A DNA stretch of 59,809 nucleotides from an uncultured archaeon (GTDB lineage Archaea > Nanohalarchaeota > Nanosalinia > Nanosalinales > Nanosalinaceae): the NCBI GenBank assembly GCA_964629245.1, contig CAZVPZ010000001.1:1-59809 (forward strand), given 5' to 3'. How positions within the stretch are numbered: position 1 is the stretch's first letter; each line of letters begins with the position of its first letter. The notes under the pieces were generated by a model that was given only the letters and a program-made list of their open reading frames with translations, was not told the DNA's origin and did no database searches. The translations under genes and the position numbers were made by a program. Below, piece by piece: positions 9,550 to 48,299 of this stretch.

Positions 9550-10095
9550 CTAGCCTAGGAGGTATTTGAGTCCAGGGTTCTTCCTGACGAGTTCGGTATC
9601 CTCCAGGTACTCGTCGAGCCCCACTATCCTGCCGGCGCCGAAAGCCCCGAGACCGAACAGCAGTATGGCGTAGACAATGTGGTCGTCCACTACCCAGCCA
9701 TGCGCCAGGGGAAGTCCCTGCATAAGCCCGCCTTCAAGGCTGGAAGCCCAGAAAAGCATCATCATCACTGCAGACCAGAAGGCACTGGACCTGACCAGCA
9801 GGCCCAGCAGTAGCCCGAGCCCGGTCAGTGTAAGGCCCCACATCACAAGGGCGTCGACCATGGGTATACCGGCCATTATCGCCCAGGCGTCCACGAACGG
9901 GTTGCCAGCCGGCACGTTCTGGAGGTATCCGGCAGCGGTCCAGGAAGGATCCAAGAGCTTTTCAACACCGGCCTGGAAGAGTATCCAGCCCATCACGATA
10001 CGTAGGGACAGGATGGAGTAGCCGACCCAGTGATCGGAGTATTCGAACGAGACATCTCTTCCGAATATCTCTGTACGAAGCTCTTGATCTGACAT
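9550..10095 (-). CDS. DoxX-family membrane protein
   Basis: 181 aa, 4 TM, with LRIVMGWILFQAGVEKL typical of DoxX/DoxD. Confidence 0.75.
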   Translation of the reverse strand: MSDQELRTEIFGRDVSFEYSDHWVGYSILSLRIVMGWILFQAGVEKLLDPSWTAAGYLQNVPAGNPFVDAWAIMAGIPMVDALVMWGLTLTGLGLLLGLLVRSSAFWSAVMMMLFWASSLEGGLMQGLPLAHGWVVDDHIVYAILLFGLGAFGAGRIVGLDEYLEDTELVRKNPGLKYLLG

Positions 10096-10217
10096 AACTC
10101 AACTAACCGCCTGCTTCCTTATAAAGGTATTCTGCCCGCTGAAGGGTTTAGGCAGGCCTAAAAGGCCTTCTTGGTTCGCTACCAAGATTAATAAACAAGA
10201 CCTCATGAACTGTTTGT

Positions 10218-10733
10218 ATGGATAGAGGCACCGTTCTAAAACTTATCCTTGTCCTGTCGGTAATCGGGCTCGGGGTGGCTGGCTACCAGACCTACGAGCA
10301 CTACTACCTTGAGTCCGCGATTTGCGACCTGAGCAGCACTTTTTCCTGCTCCGCGGTCACCGGTTCGGAGTACGGGGAGTTTCCGCCCGGTTCCGGCGTG
10401 GCGACAGCCGCACTTGGAATGATCTGGTGGCTTGGAGTCATCTTCCTGACCAACGATCTGCGTAGGGGTGAAAACCGTTTTGAAGACGAGGAGTTCTATC
10501 TCTTCGGATGGCTGGCCTTCGGAATACTGTTCATGCTCTACCTTCTGGCGGTCGAGCTATACCTACTGCCACAACAGACCGGGGAGCTCATAATATGTCC
10601 GTTCTGCACTATTCAGCACTTCCTCATGACGCTGATATTCCTTATGTCTTTCAGCCTGCTGGAGAAACCGGTCGGGAGCTACCTTGGGAATGTTTTCTAC
10701 ACGGAGGTGGATGAAAGTGGCGAAGAAGCTTGA
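10218..10733 (+). CDS. Vitamin K epoxide reductase (VKOR) family protein
   Basis: Loop Cys pair C-x7-C followed by a Ser-rich segment (CDLSSTFSCSAVTGSEYG), plus an in-membrane CxxC (ICPFCTIQH). Four TM helices. Confidence 0.85.
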   Translation: MDRGTVLKLILVLSVIGLGVAGYQTYEHYYLESAICDLSSTFSCSAVTGSEYGEFPPGSGVATAALGMIWWLGVIFLTNDLRRGENRFEDEEFYLFGWLAFGILFMLYLLAVELYLLPQQTGELIICPFCTIQHFLMTLIFLMSFSLLEKPVGSYLGNVFYTEVDESGEEA

Positions 10734-11238
10734 TCCAAAACCGTTCTTCTTCCTCGGTATAGTGGCTGTTATAGCGGTAGGAGCGTGGTTCATACTCGGG
10801 ACAGGCGGTAGCAACCAGAACTACTACGATTTCGCTTCCTGTCTCGCGGATGAGGGGGCTACGATGTACGGTTTCGACGCGTGTCCGCACTGCAACAGGC
10901 AGAAAAGTATAATCGGACAGGATGCGTTTAAGAAAAACCTGACTGACAGGGGATATTATGTCGAATGCAGGCCGGAATCGGAGGCCGGTGAACAGCTTGG
11001 AGACCGGGCGGACAGGATTTCATCGGTTGAACCGTTGAGCCCGGAGGACACGCAGGGGGAGGCCTGTGAGGTAAATGTAGGACAGGGGACCCCCACATGG
11101 GTAATAAACGGTGAGAAATATGTCGGAGAGCAGAGCCTTGTCACCCTTTCCGAGGCAACCGGATGCGCCCTGCCGGCGGGATATCAGGAGTCTGGCGATG
11201 TAGGAGGATTCACTCCGGAGGAGAACAACAGTGGCTGA
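10711..11238 (+). CDS. Membrane-anchored thioredoxin-like protein (VKOR partner domain)
   Basis: TM anchor, CPHC and GTPTWVINGEKYVGEQSL. These match the Trx-like domain that is fused to VKOR in cyanobacteria. The ATG at 10711 overlaps the VKOR 3' end by 23 nt. Confidence 0.8.
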   Translation: MKVAKKLDPKPFFFLGIVAVIAVGAWFILGTGGSNQNYYDFASCLADEGATMYGFDACPHCNRQKSIIGQDAFKKNLTDRGYYVECRPESEAGEQLGDRADRISSVEPLSPEDTQGEACEVNVGQGTPTWVINGEKYVGEQSLVTLSEATGCALPAGYQESGDVGGFTPEENNSG

Positions 11239-12103
11239 GTTCGCATTCACACTGCCGATTCTGGGTACGCTGGCCTTCCAAGAGCTTGCGCTACCTGCCG
11301 TTGTTCTTGGAGCGGCTATCGACTCGGTCAACCCATGCGCCTTCGGCGTACTGATCTTCCTGATGACCTACCTGACGAAAGTATTTGACAGGAAGAGCAC
11401 CGTACTGATTGGAGGTCTCCTGTATACATCAGCGGTCTATATCACTTACTTCCTCGCAGGTCTGGGACTTCTCAGCGCGGTCCAGAACCCGGCGATATCC
11501 TACTGGTTCTACTGGGTCGCGACCTTCGTGGCGTTCTCGGCTGCGGCTTTCGAGATAAAGGATTTCTTCTGGTACGGCCGCGGCGTATCGATGGACATGT
11601 CGATTATCCCAGGTTCTGCGGACAGGATCAAGATGTGGACCCAGAAGATGCAGAAAATCTCGAAAGAGCGGCCCAGAACAGCTCTCGCGATGACTCTTCC
11701 CATAGGATTCGGGGCAGCAGCCTTCGAACTTCCGTGCACGGGCCAGGTCTACTTCGCTATACTCGGGCTCATCAACGCTTCCGGTGCAGGACCGGAGACA
11801 TGGGTCCCATGGCTACTACTTTACAACTTCATATTCGTCGCACCCCTGCTGGTCATAACTGCTCTGATGTACGTTGGGATGTCCTCCGACAGGCTCGAAA
11901 GATGGAGGAAGAAGAACCGCCGCTACATGAGGCTCCTGATGGGGCTGTTCCTATACACACTCGGGGCATTCCTGCTCTACTTCACCTTCAACCAGTTCCC
12001 TGTCAAGGTGGCCGCCACCAGCGGCAGGGTAGCGACCTTCCTGCTGTTCGCATCCCAGATAAGCATAGTCGGCTACGTACTCTACAAGGGATACGTGGAG
12101 TGA
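11231..12103 (+). CDS. CcdA/DsbD-family thiol-disulfide transporter (membrane)
   Basis: Two conserved membrane Cys motifs (DSVNPCAFGVL and ELPCTGQVY). GTG start with an 8-nt overlap with the upstream gene. Confidence 0.8.
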   Translation: MAEFAFTLPILGTLAFQELALPAVVLGAAIDSVNPCAFGVLIFLMTYLTKVFDRKSTVLIGGLLYTSAVYITYFLAGLGLLSAVQNPAISYWFYWVATFVAFSAAAFEIKDFFWYGRGVSMDMSIIPGSADRIKMWTQKMQKISKERPRTALAMTLPIGFGAAAFELPCTGQVYFAILGLINASGAGPETWVPWLLLYNFIFVAPLLVITALMYVGMSSDRLERWRKKNRRYMRLLMGLFLYTLGAFLLYFTFNQFPVKVAATSGRVATFLLFASQISIVGYVLYKGYVE

Positions 12104-12140
12104 AGGAATGATTGAAAAGCGTTCGAGAGTATCCTGACTT

Positions 12141-12566
12141 ATGTACGAGAAGATCCTCATACCGACCGATGGCAGCAAGGGAGCGGAGGTAGCGGTCGAA
12201 CACGCCCTTGAAATCGCTGACAGGTTCGATGCGGAAGTCCACACCCTTTACGTGGTAGATGTCCGTGTCAACCGGGTCTCGGACATATTCTCCGATATGC
12301 TGGGAGAGTTCGAGGAAGTGGGTGAAAACGCTACAGCTGCCATCGAGGAGAGGATAGAAGAAGCCGACCTCGACGCGGTAACCGAAGTAGTCAGGGGTAT
12401 CCCCTCGCGTTCCATCAGGGAGTACGCTGAGGAGAACAGTATCGACCTGATCGTCATGGGAACCCACGGCAACACCGGCCTCGACCGGTTGCTCCTCGGA
12501 AGCACCACGGAGAAGGTGCTCAGGACTTCTGAGGTGCCGGTGATGACTGTAAGACGTGAGGAGTGA
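12141..12566 (+). CDS. Universal stress protein (UspA family)
   Basis: 141 aa with ILIPTDGS...LIVMGTHG..G..R.LLGSTTEKV. Confidence 0.9.
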   Translation: MYEKILIPTDGSKGAEVAVEHALEIADRFDAEVHTLYVVDVRVNRVSDIFSDMLGEFEEVGENATAAIEERIEEADLDAVTEVVRGIPSRSIREYAEENSIDLIVMGTHGNTGLDRLLLGSTTEKVLRTSEVPVMTVRREE

Positions 12567-12681
12567 GATGGCCGGGGTTATCCCGGGTTCATTACTTTCG
12601 ATACTAGCGGCTATGATTTTCGGATAAGGGTTGGAAATTTTTACCAAAGCAAAATTAAAGAAGTCCTTTCAGAGGGGTAGT

Positions 12682-13776
12682 ATGAAACCGGGTTCCGGGA
12701 CCAGTACGATACTCCTTGTCCTGGTACTGGCCTCGGTTTTCATCCCTGCCGCATCCGCACAGGGGGGACAGGAAGAGAAGTGCCTCGCATTCTTCTATTC
12801 CCCATCCTGTCCCCATTGCGATGCGGTCGAACGCTACCTTGACGACGCACGCCAGGACCACGATATCAAGGTCGAGAAGTACGCCGCATCCGAGGAGCCG
12901 GAGAAGTTCGCGAGGTATCTGGAGGAGTTCGAGGTCCCCCCGAACAGGAGAGGTGCGGTCCCCGCGGTGTTTATCGATGGTGAGTACGCTGTCGGCTCTG
13001 AGAACTCCATAGGCCTGCTGGAACGGAAGTTCAACCAGGAAGGTACGATAGAATGCCCTTTAACCGATGAAAAAAGCAGTCCTGCGACGGTCGCAGGTAT
13101 CACGGGACTGGCCCTTGTGGACGCCGTCAACCCGTGTGCCCTTGTAGTACTCCTTATACTCCTCACCTCTATCCTCAGCCGCCGCCCTGAGAGGAAGACG
13201 GAGGCCCTGAAGGCCGGGATGGGGTTTTCAGCCGCTATATTTGGGGCCTACTTCGCGATGGGTGTTCTGATAGTACTCGGCTTCAAGTCGGTAGTCTCTG
13301 TCACCCAGATAGATATACAGGGTCTGTACCAGTTGATGGGTGCTTTCGCTGTGGTGGTCGGCCTTCTCAACATGAAGGACTGGATAAGCCACGGCTGGGG
13401 CGGCTTCGCGATGGAGGTACCGTTCTCTTGGAGGCCGAAGATGAAGAAGATTATAAAATCCGCTACATCGGCCAGGGGAGCCCTGGTCGCTGGGGTGATA
13501 GTAAGCCTGTTCCTGTTGCCATGTACGTCGGGTCCATACTTCGTCGCTGGTGGTCTCCTTTCAGGTTACAGCTGGGCCGCTGCGCTTCCCTGGCTCCTGC
13601 TCTACAATGCGGTCTTCATCGCACCGATGGTTGCGATTACGCTGGCGGTCTACGGGGGATTCGCCTCGGTGGAGAACGTGTCAGACTGGCGCGAAGAAAA
13701 CATAGAGAGGCTTCACCTGTTCGCAGGTATTATACTCGTAGCACTTGGCCTCGCGCTCTTGCTCGGGCTGGTATAG
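12682..13776 (+). CDS. Secreted Trx-like domain fused to a CcdA/DsbD-like membrane domain
   Basis: Signal peptide, FYSPSCPHC, then VDAVNPCALVVL and LLPCTSGPYF. The ATG at 12682 follows a GAGGGG and is preferred over the track TTG at 12631. Confidence 0.8.
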   Translation: MKPGSGTSTILLVLVLASVFIPAASAQGGQEEKCLAFFYSPSCPHCDAVERYLDDARQDHDIKVEKYAASEEPEKFARYLEEFEVPPNRRGAVPAVFIDGEYAVGSENSIGLLERKFNQEGTIECPLTDEKSSPATVAGITGLALVDAVNPCALVVLLILLTSILSRRPERKTEALKAGMGFSAAIFGAYFAMGVLIVLGFKSVVSVTQIDIQGLYQLMGAFAVVVGLLNMKDWISHGWGGFAMEVPFSWRPKMKKIIKSATSARGALVAGVIVSLFLLPCTSGPYFVAGGLLSGYSWAAALPWLLLYNAVFIAPMVAITLAVYGGFASVENVSDWREENIERLHLFAGIILVALGLALLLGLV

Positions 13777-13874
13777 GAAACGCCTGCGCCCGGATTGTGA
13801 ACGGAACTGATGTCAGTTCCATCAACAGGCCGGGTTCAAAGAACCCGGCATTGCGCAGTATTAGCGTAACAATA

Positions 13875-14031
13875 CGCCGGCGCCCGGATTTGAACCGGGG
13901 AGGGCCGTCACAGCCCAGCAGATATCTCGTTGTTCCAGGGCGTTTCATCATCGTGGCGTTCAGCCACTCGTGCACATCTGCTTGGCAACAGCTCGAATCT
14001 GCCGCGTTCAGCCAGACTCCGCCACGCCGGC
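13875..14031 (-). tRNA. tRNA-Ser(CGA) with a 68-nt intron at 37/38
   Basis: Hand fold: acceptor GCCGGCG/CGCCGGC, anticodon stem GCAGA/UCUGC, loop UUCGAG[intron]A. Long variable arm GGGCU..GGCCC, T arm CCCGG-UUCAAAU-CCGGG, discriminator G. Confidence 0.85.
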
Positions 14032-28117: not shown

Positions 28118-28804
28118 TCAAGGTATTCTTAGTTCAATTTCTTTCTTTAGGTGCATCAGTACAAGTGCGGGTGCATTCTTGATGAAATCCCATACTGCTC
28201 TAAATCCTGAATCCCTGAGGACCTTAATGAATCCCTTTTTCTTGGTGAAAAAGACTGGTCGACCAGCATAATGGTCTCTTTGATAATACTGGTCCTCATC
28301 TCTTTTTTCAACAATTTCTTTCACTTTCTTGGTGTTGTTCCAGTCTCCTCTCATCACTACCGTTCCTTCCGGATTGATTATATGTATTGAGTTGGGCATT
28401 CCTCCATACTTTCTGTGGGCTGTTCCTTCAATATCATCCACTAATACATTGCGTTCTATATCATAGTCTTCTGCAAACTCTCTGGCTCTGTCAAGTTTAT
28501 CTTGAAATGACTCATGAGCATCGTAGTTTTCTCCAGGATGAGCTTCTCTAGTGTACAGTAAGATGAACTCTACATCTTCGAACTTTTCCTGCAGTTTATC
28601 CATTGCTTGAACTTTTGAGTCTGTGATCGGGCAGGTGATACTGCCTGTTTCAAGGACCACCCAGTCTCCTTCGAAGTCCGATAGCTTGACTTTATTTCCT
28701 TCCAGACTGGTTGCTTCAAAGTCAGGTGCCTCATCTCCCGGTTCAGGTCCTCCGAATTCCTTAAAGTCGTAGTATTCAGGTCCAAAATGACGGTAGTTAT
28801 ACAT
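28118..28804 (-). CDS. Thioredoxin-fold peroxiredoxin/deiodinase-like protein on low-GC DNA
   Basis: DFEATSLEGNKVKLSDFEGDWVVLETGSITCP is an AhpC/TSA-like entry motif. Three 60-nt lines counted gave 35-45% GC, against about 67% in one line of the neighbouring gene. Confidence 0.75.
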   Translation of the reverse strand: MYNYRHFGPEYYDFKEFGGPEPGDEAPDFEATSLEGNKVKLSDFEGDWVVLETGSITCPITDSKVQAMDKLQEKFEDVEFILLYTREAHPGENYDAHESFQDKLDRAREFAEDYDIERNVLVDDIEGTAHRKYGGMPNSIHIINPEGTVVMRGDWNNTKKVKEIVEKRDEDQYYQRDHYAGRPVFFTKKKGFIKVLRDSGFRAVWDFIKNAPALVLMHLKKEIELRIP

Positions 28805-29247: not shown

Positions 29248-30303
29248 ATGGATGACAAGGTAGTTGTTCTCGGGGCCGGCTTCGGCGGCCTCAATACCGC
29301 GATCAGGATTGCCCGGAGAGGACATGAGGTAAAAATTATCGACAGTAGCCGCTACCACGAGTTCACGCCAGGATTGATTGATGTCTATAGGGATAGAGTC
29401 TCCGAGGACCGCCTCAAGCTTGACATCGAAAGCTTTCTTCAGGGCATTTCAGTAGAATTCTCCCGGGAACACGTCGATGGTATATACCCGGAGCGGAACG
29501 TCGTTGAGACCGGGGGGAGGAGGCACGAGTATGACCAGCTCGTATTGGCCCTTGGGAGTGAACCCCATCCCCACGGAGTGGATATAAGGGATGCGGGTAT
29601 ACCTTACAGCCTCGAGCGCACAAAAGCTATAGTAGAAGACCTGGAGGAAGGAGACTCCGTGGCGGTCGTGGGTGGAGGTTATGTCGGCGTGGAGATAGCT
29701 ACAGAACTTGGCTGTCGGGGTATAGACGTTTCCGTTGTTGAAAGGTCCACGCGGCCGCTACCGGACAGTAATGAGAGGAGCAGCAAGCTTGCACTTGACT
29801 ACCTGAACCGGAAAGAGATCAATTTCCGGGGTGGCAAGGAGGTGGTAGGTGTTTCGGGGAGGGAGGTGAGTTTCCAGGATGGAACCACTATGGAGGCCGA
29901 TACAGTTCTCTGGGCGGCGGGTATCCGTACACCGAAAGTTGTCAGGGAGTCCTTCGGGGTCGGAGAAAAGGGTATCCCTGTCAACGCCGGCCTCGCCTCA
30001 GAGGAATACCCGAATGTCTTCGCGGTGGGTGACTGCGCCAAGAATGGTTGTGCGAAGACTGCTCGGAACGCCATGAGGGAGGCGGCGACGGTGGCGGAGA
30101 ATATTGATAGGTCGGAAGACCAGGAGCTTGCGCGTTTCAACAAGAAGACATACCCTGTCGTCATCAGCCTCGGTGACACCGGCATCTTCACCAAGGGAGA
30201 GTTTGCCTACCGGCACCCTCTTGTCCGGAGACTGAAGGACATTATAAGGATGCGTTACTGGTACCTGCTCCGGAAACTGAAGTGGAAAAACCGGTTTTCG
30301 TGA
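29248..30303 (+). CDS. Type II NADH dehydrogenase-like FAD-dependent oxidoreductase
   Basis: VVVLGAGFGGL and VVGGGYVGVE dinucleotide folds, plus GDCA. Confidence 0.8.
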   Translation: MDDKVVVLGAGFGGLNTAIRIARRGHEVKIIDSSRYHEFTPGLIDVYRDRVSEDRLKLDIESFLQGISVEFSREHVDGIYPERNVVETGGRRHEYDQLVLALGSEPHPHGVDIRDAGIPYSLERTKAIVEDLEEGDSVAVVGGGYVGVEIATELGCRGIDVSVVERSTRPLPDSNERSSKLALDYLNRKEINFRGGKEVVGVSGREVSFQDGTTMEADTVLWAAGIRTPKVVRESFGVGEKGIPVNAGLASEEYPNVFAVGDCAKNGCAKTARNAMREAATVAENIDRSEDQELARFNKKTYPVVISLGDTGIFTKGEFAYRHPLVRRLKDIIRMRYWYLLRKLKWKNRFS

Positions 30304-38859: not shown

Positions 38860-40221
38860 ATGAAAGAGTTCGATGCTATAGTTGTCGGTGCGGGCTCCGG
38901 GCTGGATATCGCCTCTGGCTACGCATCGCATGGCAAGCAAGTTGCGGTGGTGGAACCGGGCCCTCTTGGAGGAACCTGCCTCAACCGCGGATGTATACCT
39001 TCAAAGATGCTTATACACCACGCGGATGTAGCCTCCACTATAAAGGATTCTGGCAGGTTCCATATAGATGCGGAGCTGAACAGCGTCGATTTCTCCAGGA
39101 TAGTCGAGGAGGTGAACGAGACGGTATCTAGCGATGCGGAGCACATCGAGGACGCAGTTAGGGACTCGGACAACCACACGCTCTACAAGACAGAGGCGGA
39201 GTTCGTCGACGAGAAGGTCCTTGATGTCGATGGCGAGAAGATAACCGCGGACACTATATTCGTGGCGGCTGGAACGCGCCCGATGGTGCCGCCGGTAGAG
39301 GGGTTGGAGAGCGTTGACTACCTGACCAGCAAGACCGCGCTCGAACTGGAGGAACAGCCCGATGAACTAGTGGTAATAGGGGGCGGCTACATCGCGGTGG
39401 AGCTGGCCCACTTCTACAGCGCGCTCGGGACCGACGTAACGATAATCGAGATGGCGGACTCCCTGGTTAGCAGAGAGGACCGTGAGGTATCGCAAAAGTT
39501 CACGGAGCTGGCCTCTGAGAGATACGATGTCAACCTCGGGCTCAAAGCGTCGAAGGTAGAGGAGGTCGGCGAGAAGGTGAAGGTGACCGCGGAGGATGAG
39601 AACAGCAACAAGCATTCCTTCGCCGGCCACGACCTACTGGTCGCGGCGGGAAGAGTGCCGAACACTGACCGCCTCAAGGTCGAGAATGCTGGGATAGAAA
39701 CGGATGAGCGCGGCTTCGTGGAGACGGATGAGCACCTCCGGACGAATGTTGACGGCATCTACGCTATAGGAGATATCGCGGGCAACTGGATGTTCAAGCA
39801 CTCTGCCAACCTCGAGGCGGAACACGCATTCAGGAACGCGATGACCGGTGATGAGCACCCTGTCGACTACACCGCGATGCCCCACGCCATCTTCTCCTCG
39901 CCCCAGATCTCTGGCGTAGGCAAGACGGAGCAGGAGCTCGAGATGGAGGGTGCTGACTACGCGGTCGGGGCCTATAACTACGAGAACACAGGGATGGGGC
40001 TGGCGCTGAAGGAGGAAGACGGCTTCGTCAAGGTGCTTGCAGACCCTGAAACCCGGGAGGTACTGGGTTGCCACATCATCGGGCCCCATGCCTCGAGCAT
40101 CATCCATGAAGTGCTGGTGGCGATGAAGTCCGGCTCTGGAACTGTCGATGACATCACCGATACTGTCCACATACACCCGGCTCTCAACGAGGTAGTCCAG
40201 CGCGCCTTCAGGAACGTCTAG
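38860..40221 (+). CDS. Class I pyridine nucleotide-disulfide oxidoreductase (dihydrolipoyl dehydrogenase / glutathione-reductase family)
   Basis: GAGSG, the redox-active GGTCLNRGCIPSK, a second GGGYIAVE fold and a C-terminal HIHPALNE dimer-interface motif. Confidence 0.85.
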   Translation: MKEFDAIVVGAGSGLDIASGYASHGKQVAVVEPGPLGGTCLNRGCIPSKMLIHHADVASTIKDSGRFHIDAELNSVDFSRIVEEVNETVSSDAEHIEDAVRDSDNHTLYKTEAEFVDEKVLDVDGEKITADTIFVAAGTRPMVPPVEGLESVDYLTSKTALELEEQPDELVVIGGGYIAVELAHFYSALGTDVTIIEMADSLVSREDREVSQKFTELASERYDVNLGLKASKVEEVGEKVKVTAEDENSNKHSFAGHDLLVAAGRVPNTDRLKVENAGIETDERGFVETDEHLRTNVDGIYAIGDIAGNWMFKHSANLEAEHAFRNAMTGDEHPVDYTAMPHAIFSSPQISGVGKTEQELEMEGADYAVGAYNYENTGMGLALKEEDGFVKVLADPETREVLGCHIIGPHASSIIHEVLVAMKSGSGTVDDITDTVHIHPALNEVVQRAFRNV

Positions 40222-47449: not shown

Positions 47450-47486
47450 ACCGATTTAAAACTTGGAGGATATTTTGGTTCGTAGG

Positions 47487-47738
47487 ATGACAGAACCAGA
47501 ACAGATGCTGGAACTTTACCAGTTCGAGGGCTGTCCCTTCTGCTCGAAAGTTCGCCAGAAACTGACTGACCTGGAGATAGATTTCATCGCCCGCCAGGTA
47601 GGGCCGAAGGGCCACCGTGAACGCGTCGAGGGGGTATCTGGCCAGACGGGTGTACCGGTCCTTGTGGATCCCAATACAGACATCGTGATGCCGGAGAGCG
47701 ACGACATCGTCGAATACCTGGAAGAGCAGTACGGCTAG
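47487..47738 (+). CDS. Glutaredoxin / GST-N-terminal-like protein
   Basis: LELYQFEGCPFCSKVRQKL and GVPVLVD. The ATG at 47487 follows an AGGA. Confidence 0.8.
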   Translation: MTEPEQMLELYQFEGCPFCSKVRQKLTDLEIDFIARQVGPKGHRERVEGVSGQTGVPVLVDPNTDIVMPESDDIVEYLEEQYG

Positions 47739-48149: not shown

Positions 48150-48299
48150 TGGACCGGCCCGGATTTGAACCGGGGATCTCCACGTATCCAAGTTCGGGGG
48201 ACTGATTTCCGGAAGCCATGCATACCATGGCTTGACGCGTGCTAACTCCGCGTCAGGAGTTATCAGCGTGGCGCTCTAACCTGGCTAAGCTACCGGTCC
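48150..48299 (-). tRNA. tRNA-Ile(GAU) with a 75-nt intron at 37/38
   Basis: GGACCGG-UA-GCUU..GAGC-G-CCACG-CUGAUA[intron]A-CGUGG-AGAUC-CCCGG-UUCAAAU-CCGGG-CCGGUCC-A. Confidence 0.85.

Follow-up and report, generated by a model that had tools for sequence, protein, structure and literature searches.

In thylakoids and cyanobacteria, a VKOR oxidase fused to a thioredoxin-like (Trx) domain (LTO1) and a CcdA-type transporter with its partner HCF164 serve one extracytoplasmic compartment, and the Trx domain of LTO1 has isomerase activity in vitro (PMC3842002). In ultrasmall symbionts, VKOR has been described beside an MdbA-like oxidoreductase in bacteria of the Candidate Phyla Radiation (CPR) (Meheust et al. 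2019, PMC6744442); beyond that study and a paper on Saccharibacteria, we found no literature on VKOR in CPR bacteria or DPANN archaea. Little is known of extracellular disulfide management in archaea, and nothing in DPANN and CPR symbionts, which need surface proteins for host attachment. Here, we describe a cluster of six genes at positions 9550-13776 of contig CAZVPZ010000001.1 (assembly GCA_964629245.1), from an uncultured archaeon of the family Nanosalinaceae; the window, as we use the term, is the whole stretch of 59,809 nt that was analysed. VKOR-Trx enzymes, transporters of the CcdA, DsbD and ScsB types, and DoxX proteins are each known; what is new is a cross-domain module of VKOR, Trx, a DsbD-like transporter and DoxX in ultrasmall symbionts.

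An initial annotation had read the whole cluster as a complete Dsb-like system, with an oxidative and a reductive arm encoded as one unit. We favour a composite, to which we give a probability of roughly 0.6: a conserved core made of DoxX, VKOR, a membrane-anchored VKOR-type thioredoxin-like protein (TrxP) and a DsbD-like membrane protein (DsbDl1), joined by a universal stress protein (Usp) as a passenger and by a separate unit in which a Trx domain is fused to a second DsbD-like domain. An extracytoplasmic thiol-disulfide module with oxidising and reducing arms is plausible, and partly supported, for the core; the earlier claim is thus partly upheld, for a two-arm core rather than a six-gene system. 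The six genes are as follows (TM, transmembrane):

9550-10095, minus strand: DoxX-family membrane protein of 181 residues with about four TM helices (Pfam PF07681), transcribed divergently from VKOR
10218-10733, plus strand: VKOR, 171 residues, with a core of four TM helices (Pfam PF07884), C36 and C44 in a loop, and C127-P-F-C130
10711-11238, plus strand: TrxP, the membrane-anchored VKOR-type thioredoxin-like protein, 175 residues, with C58-P-H-C61 and a TM anchor whose N-terminus is predicted to lie inside
11231-12103, plus strand: DsbDl1, a membrane protein placed in the DsbD/CcdA superfamily (the VKOR-linked long form), 290 residues, GTG start, seven predicted TM helices
12141-12566, plus strand: Usp, a universal stress protein of 141 residues, cytoplasmic and without cysteine (Pfam PF00582)
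12682-13776, plus strand: Trx::DsbD-like fusion, 364 residues from its ATG, with a signal peptide, a Trx-fold domain (CPHC) and a DsbD-like domain of six TM helices

Open reading frames (ORFs), motifs, and Pfam and phmmer matches agree with the initial annotation on the positions of these genes, on the CPHC motif in both Trx-like domains and, in broad terms, on their identities. The overlaps of 23 and 8 nt between the VKOR, Trx and DsbD-like genes can be read directly from the DNA, and the translational coupling that had been proposed is supported. The TrxP ATG at 10711, preceded by the Shine-Dalgarno-like sequence GGAGGTGG, overlaps VKOR by 23 nt (stop TGA at 10731-10733), and the DsbDl1 GTG at 11231, preceded by GGAGGAG, overlaps the Trx gene by 8 nt (stop at 11236-11238). 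For the fusion, ATG 12682 (MKPGSG...) is the best-supported start and agrees with the public gene call P0001 (364 residues); TTG at 12631 is an alternative.

The core owes its definition to co-conservation. Among 15 distinct archaeal loci from species-representative genomes, collected with VKOR as the seed, VKOR, TrxP and a DsbD-like (DsbDl) gene are collinear in 10, whether VKOR and TrxP are split or fused. A DsbDl gene lies within 4 kb of VKOR in 13 of the 15, and DoxX lies within 3 kb in 8, with varying position and strand. VKOR, TrxP and DsbDl overlap or are at most 5 nt apart. The nearest non-archaeal homologues of DsbDl1 are found in CPR bacteria (46-50% identical, about 238 residues), and contigs of Ryanbacteria and Yanofskybacteria carry the order (DsbA-like) - VKOR::Trx - DsbDl - (DoxX). 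The same order in the CPR contigs examined overturns the idea that the module is specific to archaea: the core recurs in DPANN archaea and in CPR bacteria. What looked like a one-off gene cluster becomes a recurrent cross-domain module, one that includes a transporter branch largely missed by family libraries.

A metagenome scan seeded with the DsbDl alignment gave 80 loci, 63 of which could be evaluated. The partners of DsbDl in these 63 loci are:

25 loci: VKOR::Trx fusion directly upstream of DsbDl
4 loci: VKOR and Trx as split genes upstream of DsbDl
1 locus: VKOR only, upstream of DsbDl
12 loci: VKOR-type Trx upstream of DsbDl, 5 of them clearly without VKOR
9 loci: DsbDl with its own N-terminal signal peptide and CxxC domain, CPHC in 7
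8 loci: membrane-anchored CSVC protein upstream of DsbDl
4 loci: no such partner

By genomic context, an exported CxxC partner, either fused or encoded immediately upstream, accompanies 59 of the 63 DsbDl genes, and VKOR-type Trx is the commonest such partner: it is directly upstream of DsbDl in 41 loci, and 29 of these have VKOR fused to it or next to it. At L035, L038, L047, L059, L063, L066, L073 and L108, the place of the Trx partner is taken by the CSVC protein (about 145 residues; motif near residue 95), and two small conserved membrane proteins (start MRDLVLY...) are encoded ahead of it.

VKOR matches Pfam PF07884 with 66.1 bits (cut-off 27.5; E = 4.4e-18). Its four cysteines C36, C44, C127 and C130, together with T48/S50, are invariant across 24-25 close homologues, each of which has 156-183 residues and its own stop codon; CPFC sits at the outer end of TM4. 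TrxP has no Pfam match, and phmmer aligns it to the Trx-like domain of Synechococcus VKOR (3kp8, E = 5.2e-10; 3kp9, E = 1.1e-8), with the CPHC motifs in register and the alignment covering ...MYG..CPHC..QK..., YVEC and PTW.ING. The N-terminus of TrxP is rich in lysine (MKVAKKLDPK) and is followed by one TM helix, a segment that resembles the fifth helix of the bacterial VKOR-Trx fusion. Single-ORF VKOR::TrxP proteins of 344-346 residues, collinear with the two window genes, occur at locus L018 (labelled Aenigmatarchaeota) and locus L024, and CPR bacteria encode a collinear VKOR::Trx of about 270 residues in one ORF. We conclude that VKOR and TrxP are the VKOR-Trx fusion enzyme of bacteria and plants in split form, with the break in the predicted cytoplasmic linker between TM4 and TM5. 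The partnership of VKOR with a Trx protein proposed by the initial annotation is thereby upheld, but the two are not an independent pair; they correspond to a known fusion protein in two pieces. A sequencing error or a pseudogene was considered as the origin of the split and rejected: about 24 independent homologues of 156-183 residues end at their own stop codons, so the split is a stable lineage trait.

Beyond CPHC, TrxP contains C44, C86, C119 and C152; these four cysteines are kept among orthologues and would fit structural disulfides in an oxidising compartment. Several relatives encode a second, smaller VKOR-type Trx paralogue of about 130-170 residues (YGAYWCPHC), which lacks the 30-residue insertion and is closer to the cyanobacterial domain (L011 4662-5054; L012 7614-8009; L015 9564-9956; L017 9549-9992; L018 12558-13073, minus strand; L024 3106-3600, minus strand). 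This paralogue, which is absent from the window cluster, could be a dedicated partner of the DsbD-like protein. At L007/L016 (8496-9020), the called Trx gene encodes 123 residues, begins at MYGFDACPHC, lacks the membrane anchor and is separated from VKOR by 150 nt; possible reasons are a wrongly called start, a frameshift and genuine truncation of the partner.

DsbDl1 is 33% identical to the TM domain of the fusion, its paralogue. In DsbDl1, the cysteines of N34-P-C36 (TM1) and L167-P-C169 (TM4) are invariant in 38 sequences, and the family alignment (A3) contains the invariant motifs DSxNPC (TM1), ExKDxxWYG, ELPCTG (TM4) and YN. The AlphaFold2 model of DsbDl1 has a pLDDT of 85.4 and a pTM of 0.77. 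Against Pfam SfLAP (PF11139; cut-off 35), DsbDl1 scores 39.0 bits and the fusion 40.5 bits; among 38 family members, 14 match SfLAP, 4 match DsbD_TM weakly and the rest are assigned to no family. Because of the cysteine pattern and the regular presence of an exported CxxC partner, we file both proteins as a putative divergent, mostly unannotated branch of the DsbD/CcdA superfamily. The original label 'CcdA' had to be given up, since PF02683 does not match and the branch is mostly missed by Pfam. It is not a small one: in a library of representatives at 50% identity, the family comprises 576 clusters at E <= 1e-30 and 3058 at E <= 1e-10, and most of the best 150 matches listed have an N-terminal extension like that of the window fusion.

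Two variants of the DsbD-like domain were seen in passing. Very long proteins of 1,100-2,500 residues (P0292, P0368, P0392, P0400, P0403, P0407-P0409 and P0413) mostly have it at about residues 150-390, ahead of a long C-terminal extension; P0292 is an exception, with the domain at its C-terminal end (907-1126 of 1129). The VKOR-linked orthologues at L013 (11025-12068) and L019 (11040-12062) have a hydrophobic insertion of about 55 residues between TM2 and TM3, which probably forms two extra helices.

DoxX matches PF07681 with 31.1 bits (cut-off 23.6). The initial annotation treated it as a mere neighbour, which does not agree with its distribution. Among metagenome loci flanked on either side by at least 2 kb, DoxX is found in 8 of 16 with VKOR versus 0 of 15 without (Fisher p = 0.002; some of these loci are near-duplicates). 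Because DoxX is linked to VKOR-containing loci only, it is probably a VKOR-specific accessory with a quinone-related role. We found no literature linking VKOR with DoxX. This is the first time that genome context consistently ties DoxX to a quinone-dependent thiol oxidase.

The remaining two genes behave differently. Usp is a clear family member (PF00582, 132.9 bits, E = 1.5e-38; residues 1-138 against profile positions 1-141 of 141), and it follows the DsbD-like gene in only 1 of the 15 VKOR loci, that of the closest relative (L006 = L010). At L013 there is a weak Usp match (E 2e-4) in an ORF of 298 residues about 0.7 kb further downstream. Usp is a lineage-specific passenger outside the conserved module. 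The fusion-type gene occurs at none of the 15 VKOR loci. The closest relative, whose VKOR is 83% identical, is perfectly syntenic from DUF1405 to TtuA but has no fusion gene; in the window, the gene is flanked by Usp and by the 3' end of a conserved intron-containing tRNA (window 12567-13872 versus L006 10354-10490). Elsewhere, fusion homologues stand alone: at L001-L005, five loci representing three independent contexts, there is no VKOR, TrxP or second DsbD-like gene. Consequently, the claim that five or six genes are co-conserved did not survive.

In its own right, the fusion matches Glutaredoxin (PF00462) and SfLAP in Pfam, and weakly DsbD (PRK00293, E = 7e-4, far under the cut-off) and an MJ0307-type thioredoxin in NCBIfam. 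Across 46 homologues, C43, H45, C46, C152 and C281 do not vary. Homologues of the fusion are 36-58% identical and carry the names Nanohaloarchaea, Woesearchaeota, Diapherotrites and Halobacteria. The AlphaFold2 model has a pLDDT of 86.7, and its N-terminal domain matches thioredoxins at a Foldseek probability of 1.00. As part of the composite, and with the probability given for the whole, we take the fusion, with its MJ0307-like Trx domain, to belong to a paralogous branch and to form a second reductive unit that is complete in itself. The initial annotation had likened it to a minimal DsbD or ScsB; the topological likeness stands, but the N-terminal domain has a Trx fold and is not an alpha domain. 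GC-rich hairpins lie at window 13806-13850.

We used hydropathy and the positive-inside rule to predict topology. VKOR has no lysine or arginine in its 37-residue cysteine loop (23-59) and three in the TM2-TM3 loop (79-98). TrxP is predicted to have its N-terminus inside and its Trx domain outside. DsbDl1 has three loops rich in lysine and arginine, all on one side, and its N-terminus is predicted to lie outside, as in CcdA. In the fusion, the signal peptide ends in ASA-Q and is followed by the Trx fold and then by TM1, which enters the membrane from outside. Together with homology to the Synechococcus VKOR-Trx structure, this supports the prediction, made in the initial annotation as well, that all CxxC motifs and redox cysteines of the cluster face outside.

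Gene content, motifs, predicted topology and synteny suggest the following directions of electron flow. In the oxidising arm, by homology, the outward-facing CPHC of TrxP would oxidise cysteine pairs of exported proteins, and electrons would pass from this motif to the loop cysteines of VKOR, to VKOR CPFC and on to membrane menaquinone. The menaquinone of nanohaloarchaea would come from the haloarchaeal host. 'Ca. Nanohaloarchaeum antarcticus' takes up lipids from its host, and lipidomics detected three (demethyl)menaquinone species nowhere but in its cells and in the enrichment culture (PMC11035636); a quinone acceptor is therefore plausibly available. In the reducing arm, as the cysteine pattern and the partner rule would have it, a cytoplasmic dithiol donor would reduce Cys36 (TM1) and Cys169 (TM4) of DsbDl1, which would pass electrons to an outward-facing Trx-fold partner. 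Since the VKOR-type Trx is the commonest fused or upstream partner of the DsbDl family, the VKOR-type Trx family is the most likely acceptor, which would give the system a capacity for reduction and isomerisation beside oxidation. The fusion protein would be a self-contained version of the reducing arm. The claim of an oxidative and a reductive arm in one unit is thus partly supported for the VKOR-Trx-DsbDl triad (in the archaeal loci, the CPR contigs and the metagenome loci), but not for Usp and the fusion, which are add-ons.

Several points weigh against a two-arm module. The core encodes no partner Trx besides TrxP, and a TrxP shared by VKOR and DsbDl1 is potentially a futile cycle unless there are kinetic barriers. 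The link of DsbDl1 to CcdA is hard to see outside the cysteine pattern: neither DsbDl1 nor the fusion matches DsbD_TM (PF02683) in Pfam, and no match was found among PDB sequences with the family profile A3 even at E = 10. In a Foldseek search of the DsbDl1 model against the PDB, nothing reached E <= 1e-3; the CcdA NMR structure 5vkv has the best TM-score among the top 50 matches listed (0.39/0.47), which at E = 2.5 is not significant. An internal repeat of three plus three helices was not detected by sequence, with an hhalign probability of 7% for TM1-3 against TM4-6. DoxX has no cysteine and no established biochemical function.

VKOR-fused Trx directly ahead of DsbDl is the commonest arrangement, which also suggests another reading. 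We consider it unlikely, but worth stating, that in DPANN and CPR symbionts VKOR, Trx, the DsbD-like transporter and DoxX form one machine, in which a single exported Trx is wired both to the VKOR oxidant and to a cytoplasm-linked reductant. Such a machine would be either a minimal redox-poised folding catalyst resembling protein disulfide isomerase (PDI), or a relay that carries electrons from cytoplasmic NAD(P)H to host-scavenged menaquinone without a respiratory chain, with DoxX handling the quinol. In the relay as such, a cytoplasmic NAD(P)H-dependent dithiol donor would feed DsbDl1, TrxP, VKOR and finally scavenged menaquinone; the purpose would be quinol production, or detoxification or poising of host-derived quinone, and not protein folding, and DoxX would use or handle the quinol. 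In a milder version, TrxP would be a single PDI-like carrier, with VKOR as its oxidising and DsbDl1 as its reducing input.

This scheme, which we hold to be quite unlikely, accounts for some of the patterns described above. DsbDl directly follows a VKOR-fused Trx in 25 of the 63 metagenome loci and in two archaeal genome loci, often with no other exported Trx-fold gene nearby, and DoxX co-varies with VKOR only. To our knowledge, the DPANN and CPR organisms that carry the module usually lack respiratory chains. VKOR has precedents as a supplier of quinol in vertebrates and, as a proposal, in giant viruses (PMC13486548). The relay would, however, spend cytoplasmic reductant, and there is no known quinol-dependent enzyme in the module. 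The five clear TrxP-DsbDl pairs without VKOR indicate that DsbDl is independent of VKOR, and DsbA-like genes accompany the module at some loci, which fits ordinary protein oxidation. The module also raises the question of how a quinone-dependent oxidase works in cells that scavenge quinone and, as far as is known, are unable to respire.

The Pfam result invites a non-redox reading, in which both DsbD-like proteins are translocators of small molecules or lipids (for example, quinone or lipid) of the LysE/SfLAP type, placed next to redox genes by chance. SfLAP, named after mycobacterial glycolipid-addressing proteins, is the only Pfam family above threshold, homologues are labelled 'GAP family protein' at NCBI, and the structural match to CcdA falls short of significance. 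We regard this as very unlikely: Pro-Cys in TM1 and TM4 is invariant over 38 and 46 diverse sequences, 59 of 63 members have an exported CxxC partner, some members match DsbD_TM or DsbD, and MmpL/RND genes are absent from the window cluster and from every related locus that was inspected.

Cytochrome c maturation of the CcdA/ResA type is suggested by the JGI label of homologues ('cytochrome c biogenesis protein CcdA'), but we rejected it as highly improbable for want of a Ccm or Ccs context: Ccm, Ccs and cytochrome c genes are absent from the module, the window and the related loci examined, and the DsbD-like family is abundant in CPR and DPANN organisms, which, as a matter of general knowledge, are without cytochromes. 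That six unrelated membrane and stress genes are neighbours by chance has next to no probability, despite the lack of co-conservation of Usp and the fusion gene, given that archaea and bacteria share the core order, with genes that overlap or abut and with instances of fusion; for the core, chance is excluded, and it holds only for Usp and possibly for the fusion.

The surroundings of the cluster point to its owner. The flanks encode TFB, a DUF1405 protein and HAD hydrolases (Pfam), the proteins of the window are strongly acidic, and relatives carry the names Nanohaloarchaea or Asbonarchaeaceae, of the phylum Nanohalarchaeota; the acidic proteome, the TFB gene and these names mark the organism as a halophilic DPANN archaeon. 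About four candidate exported proteins are encoded in the window outside the cluster. Other thiol-redox genes of the window, which are unlinked to the cluster, are possible sources of cytoplasmic electron donors:

28118-28804, minus strand: peroxiredoxin/deiodinase-like Trx-fold protein
29248-30303, plus strand: Pyr_redox_2 flavoprotein, with its best NCBIfam matches all far under their cut-offs
38860-40221, plus strand: flavoprotein disulfide reductase of the dihydrolipoyl dehydrogenase / mycothione reductase type
47463-47738, plus strand: cytoplasmic glutaredoxin-like protein with CPFC

Downstream of the fusion gene, a conserved non-coding block at 13873-14030 has no match in ARAGORN or Rfam. 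We read it by eye as an intron-containing tRNA-Ser(CGA) on the minus strand. Its acceptor stem is GCCGGCG/CGCCGGC, the intron follows position 37 and has about 68 nt, the variable arm is long, and the T-arm is CCCCGGTTCAAATCCGGG; the tRNA is kept in the closest relative. A further Rfam tRNA match of 150 nt, at window 48150-48299 on the minus strand, is presumably also intron-containing and is absent from the ARAGORN list.

The conserved core, with Usp and the fusion as additions, can be set against the known systems one component at a time. Its oxidising half resembles Synechococcus VKOR (3kp9/4nv2) and Arabidopsis LTO1 in the cysteine pair of the VKOR loop and the CxxC of TM4, in the shared motifs of the Trx partner (...YG..CPHC..QK..., YVEC and PTW.ING), in a fifth TM helix that takes the Trx domain outside, and in the single-chain form found in some DPANN and CPR relatives. 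It differs from them in that the window and its Nanohaloarchaeota relatives use two translationally coupled genes, in that the operon-linked archaeal Trx is enlarged by an insert of about 30 residues and has one more cysteine pair, and in that a DsbD-like gene follows and DoxX accompanies the pair.

DsbDl1 is comparable to CcdA (Thermus CcdA 5vkv; partners ResA, CcsX and HCF164) as a small polytopic protein with Pro-Cys in TM1 and TM4 and a predicted outside N-terminus, paired with a membrane-anchored exported Trx-fold protein. Unlike CcdA, the VKOR-linked archaeal form has a seventh TM helix and is not tied to cytochrome c maturation, and its partner is a VKOR-type Trx, an oxidase-associated domain; PF02683 is not matched by the window proteins, and no sequence-profile match connects them to the CcdA of the PDB. 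The fusion, with its signal peptide, exported two-cysteine redox domain and TM core, follows the N-out logic of the alpha-beta part of DsbD and ScsB (PMC3322552). Unlike DsbD and ScsB, whose alpha domain is non-thioredoxin, it has an N-terminal domain with a Trx fold, MJ0307- or glutaredoxin-like, and it has no gamma domain and a core of six rather than eight TM helices.

Among ultrasmall symbionts, the CPR loci seen here agree with those of Meheust et al. (2019, PMC6744442) in having VKOR and also a DsbA/MdbA-like gene, whereas the DsbD-like and DoxX genes, which go unmentioned there, are conserved neighbours here. We found no description of the VKOR-linked DsbD-like branch in the literature. 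In contrast to LTO1 and CCDA/HCF164, the two proposed arms here share one tightly coupled operon, together with DoxX; the organisms have neither photosynthesis nor cytochromes, and the reducing arm of the core lacks a dedicated HCF164-like partner. With a VKOR-Trx oxidase and a CcdA-type transporter likewise proposed to serve a single extracytoplasmic compartment, the thylakoid pairing of LTO1 with CCDA/HCF164 is, by analogy, the closest functional precedent.

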